Source: Trichomonas gallinae
Taxonomy: Eukaryota
Length of the DNA: 34,363 nt
Assembly (NCBI GenBank): GCA_008369845.1
Contig: MRSU01008502.1
Location: 1-34,363 of the forward strand
Reading direction: 5' to 3'
This document shows positions 604 to 26,304 of the stretch, one piece after another (the first letter of the stretch is position 1; each line of letters begins with the position of its first letter). The position numbers were made by a program, and so were the translations under genes. The notes beneath the pieces are model-generated. The model saw only the letters and a program-made list of their open reading frames with translations, was not told where the DNA came from and did not search any database.

Positions 604-691
604 TTCAAATTCGTTTTTTCTATGTTATTTCGATTTTTGGTAAAACATAGATTAATAATTACGGATGAAAATTTGGTGGTGACATGAGATG

Positions 692-699
692 TCACTTTT
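692..699 (+). promoter_or_regulatory. Initiator (Inr) element TCACTTTT
   Basis: Matches the trichomonad Inr consensus and lies just upstream of ATG 704, so the ORF-track start at 689 is probably upstream of the transcription start. Confidence 0.7.
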
Positions 700-703
700 A
701 ATA

Positions 704-2254
704 ATGGCAAATTCTCCCCTATATAAGCAACTTCCTGATAATTACATTCAGTGTGTCTGCTGCTCTCACTACTGCCAGATAGCTCCTGGGAAGCTCGGCA
801 AGTGCCGCATTCGAGGAAATAACAACGGCCAGTTAGTTTTGCCGACATTTGGTAGATATACAGTTGCTATTGATCCTATCGAGAAAAAACCGCTTCATCA
901 CTTTCTCCCAGGCTCAAGCATCTATTCATACGGTACTGTTGGCTGCAATTTTTCATGCCAATTTTGCCAAAATTCTAGCTTGAGCATGTGGAACCTTGAT
1001 ATCGAAGATGTAGGCTGCATACATGAAAGCGATATCGGCAGACTGAAAAGACTTACTCCAGAACGCGTCGTTAATGAAGCGCTCAAAAATCATTGTCAAG
1101 CAATTGCTTCTACATACAATGAGCCAACAGTTTCATCCGAATTTTCATACCAAGTATTCAAATTAGCCAAAGAAAAAGGACTTCACACAGTATATGTAAC
1201 GAATGGATACGAAAGTGTCGAATGCCTCGATTATTTAGCACCATATCTCGATGCAGTTAACATCGATCTCAAATCTTTCAATGACAAGTTCTATATGAAG
1301 ACATGTGGCGGACATTTAGAGCCAGTTTGTAATACAATTCGCCGCTGCTACGCAATGGGAATTCACACAGAGGTCACAACACTTGTTATCCCTCAAAACA
1401 ACGATAGCGATGAAGAACTTACGAAAACAGCTGAGTTTCTCGCAAGTGTAGGAAAAGATATTCCTTGGCACATCTCTGCATACCACGATGACTACAAATT
1501 CGAAGGTTTCGGCCGCACACCACTCGAAACGCTCAAGCGCGCAGCAGCAATCGGCAAGAAAGCTGGATTGCTTTATGTATACATGGGAAACGTCCAAGCT
1601 CCAGAGGCTCGCGTCACCCGCTGCCCGAAGTGCGGCAACTTGCTCGTCGACAGAGTCTGGTTCGGCGCTGATGTCAAGATGAAAGGCGGAAAATGCGATA
1701 AATGCGGCGAAAAAGTCCCAGGATTCTTCTCGGACGCTAACAACCTCAAGCCTAAGCTCACACGTGTCCCAGACCATCTCAGAAACCTCGCAAACGCACC
1801 AGAGCCGAACAAGCCACAAGGAAAGCTTCCATCTAAGTTAGTCATCTACGCATCACAAAATGGAACTGCCCAAGAATACGCTGAGCGCATTGCTATGTCG
1901 CAGGGTGTTGATTGCTTCAACATTGCAGACATCAAGCTCGAGGACCTTCTGCAGGCAGAGTCTGTCGTCTTCGCTGTTGCAACATATGGAAGAGGAGCTC
2001 CTCCTCCATCTGCTGCTGCTTTCTGGGAGAAGGCGAAGGACGTGAAGATCGATTTGTCTGCTTTGAAGTTTGCTGTTCTTGGCTGCGGATCAACAGGCTA
2101 CAAGAAGACTTTCTGCGGATTCGCCAAGTCTATTGAAGAGAAGATGAAGGAATGCGGTGCAAAGGAATTGTGCCCACTCTGCACACGCGATGACCTCGAC
2201 GATGACGAGACATATCCAGAAGTCACCAAATGGATTGACGCCCTCAAAATGTAA
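704..2254 (+). CDS. AmmeMemoRadiSam-type radical SAM enzyme (PFL-activase superfamily) fused to a C-terminal flavodoxin/FMN-binding domain
   Basis: N-terminal CVCCSHYC..GKCRIR; IDPIEKKPLHHFLPG; CxxxCxxC (CNFSCQFC, 944-967); YNEPT; VTNGY; NIDLKSF; YVYMGNV; CPKC...CDKC. Then flavodoxin motifs YASQNGTA, ATYGRGAPP and FAVLGCGSTGY..FCGFAK. Confidence 0.9.
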   Translation: MANSPLYKQLPDNYIQCVCCSHYCQIAPGKLGKCRIRGNNNGQLVLPTFGRYTVAIDPIEKKPLHHFLPGSSIYSYGTVGCNFSCQFCQNSSLSMWNLDIEDVGCIHESDIGRLKRLTPERVVNEALKNHCQAIASTYNEPTVSSEFSYQVFKLAKEKGLHTVYVTNGYESVECLDYLAPYLDAVNIDLKSFNDKFYMKTCGGHLEPVCNTIRRCYAMGIHTEVTTLVIPQNNDSDEELTKTAEFLASVGKDIPWHISAYHDDYKFEGFGRTPLETLKRAAAIGKKAGLLYVYMGNVQAPEARVTRCPKCGNLLVDRVWFGADVKMKGGKCDKCGEKVPGFFSDANNLKPKLTRVPDHLRNLANAPEPNKPQGKLPSKLVIYASQNGTAQEYAERIAMSQGVDCFNIADIKLEDLLQAESVVFAVATYGRGAPPPSAAAFWEKAKDVKIDLSALKFAVLGCGSTGYKKTFCGFAKSIEEKMKECGAKELCPLCTRDDLDDDETYPEVTKWIDALKM

Positions 2255-2659: not shown

Positions 2660-5122
2660 CTATTGTGGATCTGGTTGTGAACATAAGAATGTCAATGTGT
2701 CCAAATTGTTTCTCGCGACAACTTTGACAGGATCAATTCTTCCTGCAAATGCTTTCTGGATCAAATGCGCACTTGCTGATGCTGCTGATTCCTGTTTCAG
2801 TCTCTTTGAGTGATATCTCAAGCAGCTCTTCATCCAGAGAATGATAAGCTCGACTTCTGGTGTCTCTCTGAGCTGCTCTGACAAAAACTGCAAAAAGTCA
2901 GCAACGTATTTTTGCGGCAAATGATTTGCGACGAAATCGATCTGGTCGTCTGGCACAGACATCAAAGCGTCTCTAAGAATCGCGCGCTCTGTATGACCTA
3001 GTCTAACACCTAATGTAACAGCCAAAACGTATTCTCCGTTCTGAATTGCTTTCTTGATAGATTCAGGTGTTACATCAACTTCGAGTTCGATCGGATCAGT
3101 TATGACCTGGTCAGCAGAAATGTAAACTAGCAAACCTTCAGGAGTTGCTGCAGCGAGGCCTCTGCCTGTTGGGCAGAACTTGACGCCGTTAGATGCAGCA
3201 GTAATGACTGGTTTTTCGGCGAATTGTGCTCTAACGATATCATCAGCCTTTCCGCTGCCATGGAATTTTTGAATATATCCTTCGACGCCTGAAAACTCTG
3301 TGTTTCTCGTGTGAGCGAATCTCCTCATCAGGACCTTGTTTGCGACTGAGTAGACGCAGATGAACTTAGTTCTGCCGCCGCAGACAATAAATGAACCGTC
3401 TGGCGAGAAATCTAATGAATCGAAGAACCAACGTGTGTTTTTGGCTGATCTCTGGCCATCGATGAGCTTGCCACCACGAGCATCGTCGACTATGTTCATA
3501 TCTCCGAGATAGCTCTCATCTGCTGTCGTATAGAAAATAATTCTGCCGTTCGAGTTGGCAATGGCCAAAATCTTTCCGTCTGGTGACACTGCTGATGCTG
3601 TGACTTCGCCGTGTGCGTCGTAAGGCTGAGATGTTTGCGTTTCGAGGAAATCCCAAATTCTTACTGTTCCATCCCAGCTGCCTGAAACTAGATGAGACAA
3701 AGGAGTGAACGAGAGGCTGGAGATTGGCTGTGTGTGGCCTGTTAACTCTTCGAGGACTTTTCCTGTTGATATATCCCATAAAATAATTGCTGTGTCCGTT
3801 TTTGTTGATGCGGCAACGATTTCGCATTTAGGGTTGACTGCTACGTGTGTGAATTCGTGTGGAACTTCAGTTGTCATCTCTCTGAAGCATTTTCCTCTTA
3901 CAACATCAAATGCTTTGCAAGTTCCATCGAGACTTGATGTTACAACTGTTCTTCCTGACTCTCCGAAGACAACATCAGTGATTGGAGCCCTGTGCTCGTC
4001 GAATGTCATGAGGCAAGAACCAGAATAAGAATCCCAAAGCTTAAGCTTGCCATCATCGCCTCCTGTTGCGAGAACAATGCCATTTGGAGAATAAGCGAAG
4101 CAAGAAACGCCTCCATAGTGTCCCTGAGACCTCTGAGCGACAGATCCGGTTTGCAAATCCCATACAATGAGTTCACCGAGCTTAGCTGATGTGAAGGCAG
4201 CAAAGCGCTTGGATATAGCTAAAGCCTGAACCTTTTCTGTTGAGAAACGAACAGTGAAGTTAGACATAACAGGCATAGTTAATCCAGGAACCGCGTAAGT
4301 TTTGAAAGTGCCATTTCCATCACCAGTAATGATAACATCACCGTTATATGCACCTACGAGAAGTGTTTGGTACTTTGTTTTTGGTTTATCGAAGTCTTCT
4401 TCATCTAGACGTCTTCTGCTGATGATTTTGATGTTAAACTCATCATCGAGCTCCCAGACGAAGAGAGTTCCGTCGCCGCCGCATGTTGTAATTTGTTTTG
4501 GATTTTCTTTGTCGAAAAATGCGAAAAGTGGCTTTCCACGATGACCAGTAAGTGAAATTGGGGCGAAATTCTCGTTTGGCTCTGTCATCATGATGTGAAC
4601 AGAAAGATCTGATGAACATGTTGCAACTAATTTTCCATCTGGTGAAAATGCGATTGTGTTGATAGCGGCAAAGTGATGATCGCCGATAGGCGGTCGTTTC
4701 TTGATGAATGGTTTAAGCGAATTTACTTCAGATGGATGTTTGAAAAATCTAACTTTGTTTTGAGAGCCAACAATCAGTCCTGTCTTGCCTGGGCCGAATG
4801 CTATGGCTGTAATTTCCTCTTTGAACATCTTTCTGTAGCATAATGTGTTAGATCCGAGTTGTGATATAAATAAATTGTTTTTTGCATCTGATGTAGCAAT
4901 ATAATCATCTTTATCAGATACAGCGACGTGTGTAATTGTTGCTGGATGCTCTATATAGTGTGTTTTGCTTTCGCCGCGCGCACAATCGAAAATAACAAGC
5001 CTATTTCCTTGTGGAAGCAGCAATTTGTCGCCTGAAGGGAGAAATTCTATGGTAGAGCCACTGTAGGTACCACTCAGAAGATTGCTAAAAACAAAATCTA
5101 GAGAGGTTCCTCTGTTGCTCAT
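2660..5122 (-). CDS. PWP2: Periodic tryptophan protein 2 (Pwp2/Utp1), SSU processome WD40 protein
   Basis: N-terminal F.FSNLL.G.Y.G motif; QGH..GVSCFAYSPNG..LATGGDDGKLKLWD; SSLDGT..AFD..RGKCFR; LTGH..PIS; C-terminal Utp12-like helical domain. Confidence 0.92.
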   Translation of the reverse strand: MSNRGTSLDFVFSNLLSGTYSGSTIEFLPSGDKLLLPQGNRLVIFDCARGESKTHYIEHPATITHVAVSDKDDYIATSDAKNNLFISQLGSNTLCYRKMFKEEITAIAFGPGKTGLIVGSQNKVRFFKHPSEVNSLKPFIKKRPPIGDHHFAAINTIAFSPDGKLVATCSSDLSVHIMMTEPNENFAPISLTGHRGKPLFAFFDKENPKQITTCGGDGTLFVWELDDEFNIKIISRRRLDEEDFDKPKTKYQTLLVGAYNGDVIITGDGNGTFKTYAVPGLTMPVMSNFTVRFSTEKVQALAISKRFAAFTSAKLGELIVWDLQTGSVAQRSQGHYGGVSCFAYSPNGIVLATGGDDGKLKLWDSYSGSCLMTFDEHRAPITDVVFGESGRTVVTSSLDGTCKAFDVVRGKCFREMTTEVPHEFTHVAVNPKCEIVAASTKTDTAIILWDISTGKVLEELTGHTQPISSLSFTPLSHLVSGSWDGTVRIWDFLETQTSQPYDAHGEVTASAVSPDGKILAIANSNGRIIFYTTADESYLGDMNIVDDARGGKLIDGQRSAKNTRWFFDSLDFSPDGSFIVCGGRTKFICVYSVANKVLMRRFAHTRNTEFSGVEGYIQKFHGSGKADDIVRAQFAEKPVITAASNGVKFCPTGRGLAAATPEGLLVYISADQVITDPIELEVDVTPESIKKAIQNGEYVLAVTLGVRLGHTERAILRDALMSVPDDQIDFVANHLPQKYVADFLQFLSEQLRETPEVELIILWMKSCLRYHSKRLKQESAASASAHLIQKAFAGRIDPVKVVARNNLDTLTFLCSQPDPQ

Positions 5123-5143
5123 TATTTTCTAAAATTTTGCAAA

Positions 5144-5148
5144 AAAGG
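5144..5148 (-). promoter_or_regulatory. M5-like core promoter motif (CCTTT) of PWP2
   Basis: CCTTT about 22-26 nt upstream of the ATG with no TCA Inr in that interval; M5 is a known alternative trichomonad initiator. Confidence 0.4.
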
Positions 5149-5721
5149 TCACAAAAAAATCAATTTGCAGATTTAGCATTTTCATTGCCTATAAATGCTA
5201 TTTTTCTAATCAAAATTCGAAAATCTTCTGATTTTATTTTTGATATTTTTAAAATTGAAAATTGAGCAATATAATATAGTTTAATGTAATACATTTCACA
5301 TACTAAACATATTATTGATTTAAAAATTATATGTTATCGTTGATTTATTTTTGAATTAAAATTTTTATTAATGATTTTAATATAGCATTAAATAAACAAA
5401 TAGTATATCCATCAAATGGTAAAATTACATTGCAAATGATCGTTGAATTTGAATAAAAAATGTAAAATGAAATATCTGCAAATGTAATAATGGGATATTC
5501 TCAGGAAGTGGTAGAAAAAGATAAATAAATGGAAATGATTAAGGAAATTAAATAATATTTATTCTTTAGGAATAAAAATTAAGGAGAAATCTGCAGTAAT
5601 CATCAAGCAGTTGCCTGATAGATTGATGTTTAACATGCAAGTAAAAAGTTTTTTTTTTTTTTGATTTAATTAAATCAATTGAAAATAATTAACTGTGTGT
5701 TAGTATATTTAATAAAAAAAG

Positions 5722-5788
5722 GCGGCTCAGTTATCTCAAAAGCATCAGCATTTAGATGTCAGACGAGAGGAATAGTCGTCAGAGCCGC
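5722..5788 (-). ncRNA. Putative box C/D snoRNA
   Basis: Minus strand reads GCGGC-TC-TGACGA(C)-CTATTCCTCTCGT-CTGA(D')-CATCTAA-ATGCTGA(C')-TGCTTTTGAGATAA-CTGA(D)-GCCGC. It has a terminal GC stem, all four boxes in order, 13-14 nt guides, upstream Inr elements and a downstream T-tract. Confidence 0.75.
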
Positions 5789-5822
5789 ACTAAAAGATAC
5801 ATACTGCTTCTGGTCAGCCAGA

Positions 5823-5839
5823 AAAATGATGAAAAGTGA
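5823..5839 (-). promoter_or_regulatory. Tandem Inr elements (TCACTTTTCATCATTTT) upstream of the putative snoRNA
   Basis: Inr consensus repeated with no downstream protein-coding ORF of note. Confidence 0.55.
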
Positions 5840-6390
5840 CAAGGACATAACTTCATTTTTTATTATTTTCAAACAGTCACATTAAGTACATCATCTGCAT
5901 TAATATTTTCAAAAATAATCGTTATATGGCCCAATTGCTGTTAAAAATTCTGAATTTTTAGCTCATTCGTGAAAATCTTTCAATAAATCGATAATATTCC
6001 AATAACTCTACATATTTTATTATTTATTTTAGGATTTTACAAATTTATTATATGAAATTTTTGAAAATGATAGAGAAAAATACGTTTTTTTATCTAAAAT
6101 TTTTTTCAAAAAATTGAAAAATAGAGATTTATCCGTGTTATGGTGTTATTCTCCGACTTATGCGGAAATTTTGAGTTTTAAAATTTAACGAATCAAACGT
6201 GACAGCGTGTAAAGGTTATATTTCATCGATTTTCAAGTGCGAAATATTGATTGAAAAAACGGGTATTGAGGCGGAGTTACGTCCCACATACTTTATATTC
6301 ATGTAGATGTGTTTATTAAGCGTTGCTGTATGCTAAAGATTGATGATGAGCGATACAGAAATGTATTGAAATCTTTGTCAAAAATATATA

Positions 6391-7371
6391 ATGTTTGAAC
6401 CGGAAGAGCTTTTTGTTGTTGAAAGCCCAGCATGGACGGTTGATCCAAGTGGAAGCCCCTGCACGGCAGTGGATTATTCCATAGATGGTGCTTTCGTTGC
6501 TTATTCCAACAAACCAGGCATAATTACTATCGCGACATCATATACCGGCGAAATCAAGCGCGTTCTTGAGCAAAAATACACTACAAATCCAATCACAAAA
6601 ATCAGATTCCATCCATTCGAAGAAAACCTTCTCCTTTGCACTAGCAGAGATGGTTTCATCTTTTTATACAACATCGTCAAAGGAGAAATGGTCGAAATGT
6701 CAAGGCACCTTGGCAGCAACTTGCTCGCAATGAACGTCGACTCATTCGGCGAAACATTTGCTATTGCTTGTGCCGATGGATCAATCAGAGTTTATGATCT
6801 TGAGAATCTACAGAGAACTAAAGTCCTCGTTAAAATGGCATCAAGGACATCAGCATCACAGCAAGTTAATATATACGACATCTGCTTCCATCCTGAAGAT
6901 TCGAATGTAATCTTAGCGGCTGGCTGGAATGATAGAGTTCTTTACTGGGATATTCGTACAGGTAATGCAGAACGTAACATTGCCGGTCCACATATTCGTG
7001 GGTCTGGCTTAGATGTCCACAATGATACAATTATTACAGCATCCGCAAGAGATAAGAAGCAAATTGAAATGTGGGATTACGGAACAGGCAAAAAGCTTAG
7101 AGAAATCAACATTAACGTCGAAGCCGCCAAAAAAGATTGCTTCATCAACGCTTGCAAGGTTTCCAGAAACGGTTTGGCTCTTGCCGCTGGTGGTTCTGGC
7201 TGCAACCTTACACAGAGCTTCGAGTTTTCACATGGTACATTTATCGGACAAACAGCTACTTATTCTTCACCAGTTTCATATGTTGCTATGTCTCCATTTG
7301 GATCCAGCTTTGTTACAGGTACAGAAAATGGTGATATTTCTTGCCATATGATCAGACTTAAACCAAATTAA
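6391..7371 (+). CDS. WD40-repeat beta-propeller protein
   Basis: Repeats such as DGSIRVYD, AGWNDRVLYWDIRTG and IEMWDYGTG, plus FHP motifs. Confidence 0.88.
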   Translation: MFEPEELFVVESPAWTVDPSGSPCTAVDYSIDGAFVAYSNKPGIITIATSYTGEIKRVLEQKYTTNPITKIRFHPFEENLLLCTSRDGFIFLYNIVKGEMVEMSRHLGSNLLAMNVDSFGETFAIACADGSIRVYDLENLQRTKVLVKMASRTSASQQVNIYDICFHPEDSNVILAAGWNDRVLYWDIRTGNAERNIAGPHIRGSGLDVHNDTIITASARDKKQIEMWDYGTGKKLREININVEAAKKDCFINACKVSRNGLALAAGGSGCNLTQSFEFSHGTFIGQTATYSSPVSYVAMSPFGSSFVTGTENGDISCHMIRLKPN

Positions 7372-8514
7372 GTTTGATTTTCGTATTAGTAGAACTAAAA
7401 GTCCAGAATCGGAGTGTGAATGTAAACAATTTTACTTTTATTATATATAGGTTTAGTTAATTCGTTATAATATTAGATTTTATTATTGATCAAAAAATAT
7501 CTAGCCTTCATCTCAAATCTTCCTTGACATGTTAGATCTATGACAGAAATTTGTTGGAATATGAACTGTAAAAGTTTCTATCTCGTTAAAATGGAAAATG
7601 AATTTTTCTGACATTGTAATATTTTACATGACATAAATTTGGTTGCATCGTGATTTTATCATTCTATAGATCGTTAATATATAGTTACAATAGGATATTA
7701 CAAATAAATTCATAAAAATGCTTTGTTTTATAGAATCTAAATAGTGCAAACGCTATGATAAATTAATATGGATTGACGATAGTATGTTAATTGCTTGAAA
7801 AGTAACAGGGCATAATCCTTAGACAGTCCAAATTTATGCTCGGTAATTTGTAGACTCAGATATCAGTCCTTAATTTCGATGCCTTAAAAAAACACATTGA
7901 AATATTTGACAATGACATAAAACTTTTTTTACCCGTCAAATTTAGTTGGTTCTTGAAGTTTACGGGCGCAAAAGCATACCAAAAATTTCAAAATCTGAGA
8001 TTACCAGATGAATGAACATTTTTACTTTAAATTATTCTTAAATTTGAATAGAAAATAATCGTAAGTCTGCAAATTACATTTTACGCCCATCAAAATCGAC
8101 GGTTTTACAGTTTTTTTTATTTTGGATAAGAAAAATATCCACAATTTACATATATCGAATATGTTTTCTAGTGAAAAATTACATCAAACGATAATTCACC
8201 TGAATACGATAATTTTTCATTCAATTTCGAAAACTAAAAAATTGAAAACATTATATAAGTCTAATTAGGCAATTTGATTGCGCTCACACGCCCGTAAAAT
8301 GTTTCGAAATGTTCGAAATTTTGAATACTTTACATTTTATCATCAAAACACTTTAATCTCTTTTATTATATAATTATGAGTATATTTCATCAACGTGCCC
8401 TTTATCAAAAAATAATCGTAATTCTTTCAAAAATATTTCTCCCTTTTATAGCATATTATAGCCAACCAAATAAAATTAAAATGGTTAAAAATTGAATGAT
8501 GCCAATTTTGTTGA

Positions 8515-24633: not shown

Positions 24634-26304
24634 ATGATTAAGGTCAAAATCAATGGTCAAGAAGCGTTTGTAAAGCGAAATATGACGATTTTAGAGGCAT
24701 GCAGGGCTCTTGGAATATATGTTCCAACACTATGCTCACATCCTGATCTTCCACCAATCGGCCAATGTGGAGTTGATGTAGTTAAGGTGAATGGATCATC
24801 ATTAGAGCGTGCATGTGTTACATACTGTCAGGAGGGAATGGTTATTGAAACGAATACCCTTGATGTGAAGCAAGCATCATTAAATAATCTTCAGAAATTC
24901 GCGCCAGGAACAATGATGCAAAAGACTCCGGATATAGAGGATCTTTGGAATTACTATCAGCCAAAGAAAGGCCAGCCTTACCCTCCACAACAAAATGTCT
25001 CTATTCAATGGGATCCAGAAAAATGTATCAACTGCCATCTTTGCATCCGCGCATGCACAAATGTTCAACAAATCGACTCAATTGACTCTATTACCCATCA
25101 CATTGATGAATCGTGCATCAAATGTGGACATTGCCTTACTGTTTGCCCAACTGCAGCACTTACTCCAACATCGGAAATCGGTAAGGTTCTTGCCGCACTG
25201 TCATCAGACAAAGTTTGCATTATACAAACTGCTCCTTCAGTTAGAGTTACAATTGCTGAAGGTTTCGGTGAACCACTAGGCACAATATGCACAGGAAAAG
25301 TAGTCGCTGCCGCCCGCATGATGGGCTTCAAGTACGTCTTTGATATCAATTATGGGGCCGATCAGACAATCATTGAGGAAGGCACTGAATTCATGCATAG
25401 ACTTTTGTACAACGAAGCTCCACTTCCACAGTTCACATCATGCTGCCCAGGCTGGGTCAACTACGTTGAAACGAAACATCCAGAAGTTATTCCACACCTT
25501 TCAACAGCCAAGAGCCCGCACATGATGAGTGGTGTTGCCATTAAGACGTACTTCTCCCATGTATCAGGTATTCCAGCAGAAAACATGTTTGTCGTTTCAG
25601 TTATGCCATGCACAGCAAAGAAGGACGAGATCGTCAGAGAGCAGCACAAAGGCGTTGTTGATGCTGTCCTCACGTCAGTGGAATTCGTCGAGCTTATCAA
25701 CAGATACCAGTTCGACTGGAAGACAATGCCAACGTCAGAATACGACGACTTGATTTCCGAATCTACTGGCGGCGCAACAATTTTCGGTGCTACAGGTGGT
25801 GTCGCTGAGGCTGCCCTCAGATTCTGCTATGAGCAGATGACAGGAATGCCGATCGGAACAATGATATACTCGGACTTAAGAGGTCTCGATGGTGTCAAAA
25901 CAGCAACAGTCAACATTGCAGGAAGAACAATCAGAATCGCCGTCTGCAATGGCGTTGGCTATGCTCACGACTTTCTCAACACTGGTGCATGGAAGAACTT
26001 CGACATCGTCGAGGTTATGGCGTGCCCAGGCGGCTGTGTCGGCGGCGGTGGACAGGTTATCCATCCAAGAACAGTCCCGAAGAAAGACATTCTTCAGGCG
26101 CGTGTTAATGCTTTGTATGCGATCGACAAGCAGAAGATTCAAGAAGGAAAGTCTACAACCAATGAGAACTCGCAGTTGTTGAAGATGTATAGAGATTACG
26201 TTGGCTCTCCTTATTCTGAGCGCGCCAAGCAGCTCTTCCATACATGGTATACTGATAGATCCATGAATAGATCAGCCAACTATTATAACCAATTCCGTAT
26301 TTAA
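24634..26304 (+). CDS. [FeFe]-hydrogenase with N-terminal [2Fe-2S]-like domain and 2x[4Fe-4S]
   Basis: H-cluster motifs FTSCCPGW, MPCTAKKDE and EVMACPGGCVGGGGQ; CINCHLCIRAC and CIKCGHCLTVCP; N-terminal PTLC...GQCGVD...AC. Confidence 0.96.
   Translation: MIKVKINGQEAFVKRNMTILEACRALGIYVPTLCSHPDLPPIGQCGVDVVKVNGSSLERACVTYCQEGMVIETNTLDVKQASLNNLQKFAPGTMMQKTPDIEDLWNYYQPKKGQPYPPQQNVSIQWDPEKCINCHLCIRACTNVQQIDSIDSITHHIDESCIKCGHCLTVCPTAALTPTSEIGKVLAALSSDKVCIIQTAPSVRVTIAEGFGEPLGTICTGKVVAAARMMGFKYVFDINYGADQTIIEEGTEFMHRLLYNEAPLPQFTSCCPGWVNYVETKHPEVIPHLSTAKSPHMMSGVAIKTYFSHVSGIPAENMFVVSVMPCTAKKDEIVREQHKGVVDAVLTSVEFVELINRYQFDWKTMPTSEYDDLISESTGGATIFGATGGVAEAALRFCYEQMTGMPIGTMIYSDLRGLDGVKTATVNIAGRTIRIAVCNGVGYAHDFLNTGAWKNFDIVEVMACPGGCVGGGGQVIHPRTVPKKDILQARVNALYAIDKQKIQEGKSTTNENSQLLKMYRDYVGSPYSERAKQLFHTWYTDRSMNRSANYYNQFRI

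Follow-up and report, generated by a model that had tools for sequence, protein, structure and literature searches.

The tip of the sarcin-ricin loop (SRL) ranks with the most conserved regions of the ribosome, and the yeast and plant sources covered map no modification there. A 67-nt element in a trichomonad window (the whole stretch of DNA analysed, 34,363 nt) raises the question of whether a small RNA directs a methyl group to this tip and, if so, what such a methyl would be for.

Layout and setting of the RNA gene

The minus strand from 5788 to 5722 reads GCGGC-UC-UGACGA-CUAUUCCUCUCGU-CUGA-CAUCUAA-AUGCUGA-UGCUUUUGAGAUAA-CUGA-GCCGC, with the stem, the boxes and the guide all at the positions given in a preliminary description of this DNA. 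The box C/D RNA gene proposed there (5722..5788, minus strand, 67 nt from stem to stem, a gene span and not mature ends) is borne out by this layout, an architecture scan and a weak Rfam match to SNORD60. The arms of the terminal stem, GCGGC (5784..5788) and GCCGC (5722..5726), are evident in both sequence and fold and form a 5-bp GC helix that closes the C/D motif. Box D (CUGA, 5727..5730) adjoins the 3' end and agrees with the consensus, and box D' (CUGA, 5759..5762) is perfect in the window. Box C (UGACGA, 5776..5781) is a variant, preceded by C where a purine is expected: the region CUGACGA has two deviations from the consensus RUGAUGA, both kink-turn GA steps are present, and the UCU running into the box would supply the 3-nt kink-turn bulge. 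Box C' (AUGCUGA, 5745..5751) deviates once, having C for the A of the sheared pair, and this loss from the tandem G-A pair was missed in the preliminary description. The boxes enclose a D' guide, CUAUUCCUCUCGU (5763..5775), and a D guide, UGCUUUUGAGAUAA (5731..5744). By sequence criteria the element is a box C/D guide.

In chance tests, the window holds a single C-D'-C'-D array closed by a terminal stem of 4 bp or more, and 3 of 200 dinucleotide shuffles contain such an array, under thresholds picked with the finding in view; the four boxes without the stem requirement occur in 20 of 200, and the box-guide-box pattern in none of 100 shuffles. A 10-nt match to rRNA accompanies 2 of the 267 CUGA sites in the window, with 4.4 kb of E. 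coli 16S and 23S serving as a proxy for the rRNA background. The Rfam check returned none of 4227 families at gathering scores across the window, and its best match to the element, SNORD60 (19.9 bits against a gathering score of 42, E=0.78), is weak and lies exactly over 5722-5788. The element thus belongs to no described Rfam family. Fold z-scores are -3.75 for the minus strand and -4.16 for the plus strand; since both strands fold well, the strand is assigned by the boxes and not by energy. In the naked-RNA fold, box C pairs with the 3' end of the guide. The "GC-rich island" of the preliminary description is right in direction and only modest in size, at 48% GC against 28% in the 500-nt bin.

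The flanks offer possible control signals. The upstream block (5789..5872, minus strand) may be a promoter or leader and contains initiator-like TCAYW motifs at 5829-5825 and 5839-5835, a type of motif no commoner than background (422 found against 498 expected). The downstream block (5693..5721, minus strand) begins with a U7 run directly after the stem, a possible 3'-end or termination signal. The stretch 5793-5872 also holds a 7-bp hairpin with CUGA in its loop (minus strand, ~5824-5807) and, on the plus strand, an AUGAUGA motif with a weak snoR44_J54 match. A second C/D RNA just upstream (U30, E=3.7, 5899-5817 minus; snoR44_J54, E=9.2, 5819-5862 plus) was rejected for now because it lacks both a terminal stem and a complete set of boxes and is not retained in the second related copy described below.

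The window consists of long single-frame genes with AT-rich spacers between them. Sequence comparison gives the gene at 6391-7371 95% identity to T. vaginalis TVAG_010570, so the host is a Trichomonas close to T. vaginalis, in agreement with the trichomonad host of the preliminary description. The snoRNA gene lies in the spacer between this gene and a PWP2/UTP1 gene (5122-2660, minus strand, E=2e-122 against solved Pwp2 chains). This ribosome-biogenesis gene is on the same strand, 600 nt downstream of the snoRNA, and the two possibly share regulation. A tRNA search of the whole window found none. Elsewhere, a bacterial-looking ORF of 521 aa (689-2254, plus strand) resembles a fusion of an AmmeMemoRadiSam-type radical SAM enzyme with a flavodoxin-like domain at its C-terminus, and an ORF of 556 aa (24634-26304, plus strand) has motifs that resemble those of an [FeFe]-hydrogenase.

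Predicted pairing with the sarcin-ricin loop

The D' guide was proposed to be antisense to the SRL over 10 contiguous pairs. The 10 nt adjoining D' indeed pair Watson-Crick (-15.9 kcal/mol) with all three eukaryotic LSU fragments obtained, which come from other organisms and were found among 19 loci, and 9 nt pair with E. coli and Bacillus 23S. These fragments were fetched with a pattern requiring C after GGAA and therefore cannot bear on the longer, 13-nt target that had been predicted; the three loci matched in a search with that predicted motif were viral and included no rRNA. By the usual rule, the duplex used by a C/D RNP is no longer than ~10 nt. As such a duplex suffices, and as a metagenomic RNA with the same guide (L016, below) has A at guide position 11, the three extra guide bases need not pair. 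The eukaryotic LSU fragments lie within IMG/VR viral contigs (L037 3478-3858, L044 1-361 and L047 2245-2589) and may be captured host sequence or mis-assembly.

Counting five nucleotides from D' places position 5767 opposite the second G of GAGA, which has index 2662 in E. coli rrlA. Because the rrlA index runs one ahead of standard numbering at the SRL, this nucleotide is G2661, the register given in the preliminary description. The tetraloop comprises G2659-A2662; alpha-sarcin cuts between G2661 and A2662, on the 3' side of that G as had been stated, and ricin-type enzymes target the base of A2660 (PMC6562825).

In line with the preliminary description, the mass-spectrometry table for yeast 25S, in the part covered, maps no modification at the G2661 equivalent; its last entry is pseudouridine 2973 (PMC5062969), and the yeast SRL adenine is A3027. 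In plants, the SRL "does not seem to be 2'-O-methylated" (PMC11542601), while the human SRL region is said to carry more modifications (PMC8351944). Neither a guide nor a 2'-O-methyl for G2661 came up in the literature covered, which took in yeast, plant, human, archaeal, Tetrahymena and T. vaginalis sources. A literature search with the exact sequence gave only unrelated reports.

The kind of RNA is known, and the novelty of the Trichomonas element lies in its target. It shares a terminal stem, C-D'-C'-D order, 13-14 nt guides and flush pairing with eukaryotic C/D methylation guides, among which its neighbour SNORD60 (RF00271) has unlike guides, whereas the Trichomonas RNA would target the SRL tetraloop. 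Human SNORD91 is likewise a C/D guide to the SRL helix, directing modification of 28S G4618 in helix 95 (PMC12288042); this site lies outside GAGA, 13 nt to the 3' side of adenine A4605 in the loop, and the guide differs from that of Trichomonas. Tetrahymena TtnuCD32, also a C/D RNA of a protist, is complementary to the SRL helix over a long stretch, pairing 15 of 16 nt at the helix base, and the U3036 methylation predicted for it is described as absent. TtnuCD32 is U14-like and pairs with the stem base next to box D, whereas the Trichomonas guide covers the loop tip from D'. Closer in host are eight C/D snoRNAs of T. vaginalis, which snoscan detected against rRNA and reads confirmed (Chen et al. 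2009, PMC2817412), of the same genus and class as the element at 5788-5722. These eight are described as lacking C' boxes and stems, and one of them may be the present element (PMC2817412). Archaeal C/D sRNAs (snoPyro_CD, RF00095) have the compact double-guide layout in common with the Trichomonas RNA and differ in host domain; its guide core occurs in none of the 489 sRNAs of seven archaea in the published set.

Copies and look-alikes in other DNA

Two records from one public DNA run listed as a bird metagenome (X1) were aligned with the window. The first is syntenic, with 73 substitutions over 4500-6082 and a single listed substitution within the RNA itself, a change at 5751 that leaves a purine in place in C'. 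One change against 4.3 expected (P=0.07) is not significant alone, and the rate behind this expectation may be overestimated. The stretch 5793-5872 has no listed substitution over its 80 nt in this contig (P=0.006, post hoc). In the interval 6082-7500, the match to the syntenic contig ends at 6082, and the WD40 gene is covered in X1 by several short contigs of differing identity; the break may reflect a rearrangement, paralogues or two trichomonads in the sample.

The second record (8.4 kb, similar depth) has unrelated flanks and aligns over 5693-5807 only, taking in the downstream block and the upstream block up to 5807. It may be a paralogue or come from a second trichomonad in the sample. 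Its listed substitutions (5748, 5751, 5752, 5754 and 5761) are accompanied by two internal indels, and the listed changes all fall within C', the spacer and D', none of them in either guide. Five of the 12 substitutions are listed and the rest lie near the ends of aligned pieces; as listed rows are at least 35 nt from an end, statements about the guides and boxes of this copy are vouched for over 5728-5772 only, a stretch that excludes the stem, box C and as many as three bases at the 5' end of the guide. Hand-read from the difference tables, its D' is CAGC and its C' is GUGUUGA, and the two would pair as a plain helix. The first base of C' is changed from A to G in both X1 copies, with a further C-to-U change in the second. 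The D guide has no listed change in either contig and is as conserved as the D' guide, a feature that the preliminary description missed together with the degenerate D' of the second copy. That the guides are retained as the internal boxes drift speaks for a functional RNA. The same drift weakens methylation from D' without excluding it; divergent C'/D' motifs direct methylation in yeast assays (PMC3116282).

The guide recurs outside trichomonads. A pattern of box, SRL guide and box matched 21 JGI metagenome loci, 15 of them distinct, and three of the distinct loci are four-box C/D RNAs: L016 306-249 (minus), L005 2095-2165 (plus), and L008 126-194 (plus), which is the same as L018 2566-2498 (minus). 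All three carry the same guide in the same G2661 register before a perfect CUGA, at the D position in two of them, and each has a second C/D half, which was not part of the search pattern. Loose rules put the background rate of such a second half at 4.9% (P=0.035) and stricter ones, set after the fact, at 1.5% (P=0.0013), and none of seven bacterial-genome matches to the guide pattern has one. Since the register was chosen by the search pattern, with no control over other registers, these RNAs show recurrence and not preference. A viral collection gave one match in the exact register, two in other registers and none with four boxes. No trichomonad homologue was recognized among the 21 loci, one of which (L015) is retroelement-like and has no second C/D half.

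The three RNAs are of archaeal type. L016 has 12 guide bases identical to those of Trichomonas and matches Rfam snoPyro_CD with E=0.0032, below the gathering score. The neighbours of L005 are archaeal, with the Sso10a family above cut-off and, as a lead only, atlas clusters that are 81-100% Archaea (scores 0.88-0.89). The second guide of L005 pairs 10 nt with E. coli 23S near position 1948, and that of L016 fits, by eye, a neighbouring stretch of an archaeal 23S alignment (PMC4644070); both point to 23S near E. coli 1933-1948. The contigs that bear these RNAs contain many unknown genes and may be mobile elements. The match between these guides and that of Trichomonas is explained as well by convergence on a conserved target as by descent.

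Possible roles in methylation, pairing and protection

The best explanation, to which we assign roughly an even chance, is that the RNA serves as a methylation guide for the G2661 equivalent, with a structural role. Its basis is the layout, the 10-nt match, the register, the guide-keeping second copy and the archaeal-type look-alikes. The RNA would be transcribed from its own upstream signals, and the terminal stem with boxes C and D would form a kink-turn that loads Snu13, Nop56/58 and fibrillarin. The guide would open helix 95 in pre-rRNA before the loop folds, and the methyl would be placed 5 nt from D'. Its likely effect is structural, first holding and then stiffening the loop tip contacted by EF-1A and EF-2. 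In a GNRA loop, the hydrogen-bond network draws on the 2'-OH of the first G and not on that of the third base, which makes methylation of G2661 structurally plausible. Counting against this reading are the C' box without its sheared-pair A, the second-copy C' and D' that would close into a plain helix, and a box C with two deviations that pairs with the 3' end of the guide in the naked-RNA fold. The comparative sources covered weigh in the same direction, with no mapped yeast modification, plants described as unmethylated, no match among the 489 archaeal sRNAs and a TtnuCD32 without its predicted methylation.

Several of these points would also suit a real snoRNP that pairs with the SRL without methylating it and keeps helix 95 open or sets the time at which it folds in 60S assembly; methylation would then fall to the D guide alone, which adjoins a canonical D box. 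We regard this as possible, although with less confidence. With the guide kept, the second copy has a degenerate D' box and all three copies depart from the C' consensus; TtnuCD32 provides a precedent for pairing at the SRL base without methylation, double-guide archaeal sRNAs have been proposed as chaperones (PMC4644070), and the yeast and plant accounts covered map no Nm at the loop tip. However, a pure chaperone needs no duplex flush with a perfect CUGA, as found in the window copy and in three archaeal-type RNAs, and divergent C'/D' motifs can be active (PMC3116282). It is very unlikely that the element is instead a snoRNA copy that is silent or in decay, or that its match is due to chance. 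The two deviations in box C, the failure to reach the gathering score of any Rfam family and the weak conservation signal of the syntenic X1 copy taken alone would fit such an origin, but the shuffle tests argue against it, as does a second copy that has unrelated flanks and keeps both guides in all listed rows.

If the methyl exists, protection from ribotoxins follows chemically, and a selected role for it is hypothetical. Cyclizing ribonucleases such as alpha-sarcin need the 2'-OH at the cut bond, and its loss blocks them. For a methylation guide, this block at the G2661 bond would probably be a by-product. We consider it unlikely that the methyl was selected as a shield against ribonucleases that cut the SRL, such as fungal ribotoxins or VapC-type toxins of co-resident microbes. 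Alpha-sarcin does cut between G2661 and A2662 (PMC6562825), VapC20 and VapC26 cut the SRL (PMC5175351), and the guide recurs in unrelated lineages, but no ribotoxin exposure of trichomonads was found in the literature among the matches listed, and ricin-type enzymes act on the base of A2660 and would not obviously be blocked (PMC6562825). Also unlikely is the broader proposal that G2661 methylation is real and recurrent across domains, with trichomonads and uncultured archaea (or mobile elements of the latter) both using it as an RNA-encoded shield, by which ribosomes become uncleavable by SRL ribonucleases yet stay active.

A natural methyl on G2661 would show modification to be tolerated at the nucleotide next to the GTPase-activating A2662 phosphate, and the 67-nt gene with its swappable guide would be a genetic handle for asking if one methyl shields ribosomes from sarcin-type toxins. 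Even without methylating, the RNA would be one of the rare snoRNAs to cover the loop tip while 60S subunits assemble. On both readings, a lineage in which few snoRNAs have been described gains a defined one.

A second rRNA site is the likely target of the D guide. Its best match among six bacterial and partial eukaryotic rRNA references is 7 nt Watson-Crick, or 8 nt with G-U. With the 5' end of a typical eukaryotic 18S it would presumably pair over 11 nt, including two G-U pairs, in a stretch where we take the parabasalid SSU to be divergent.
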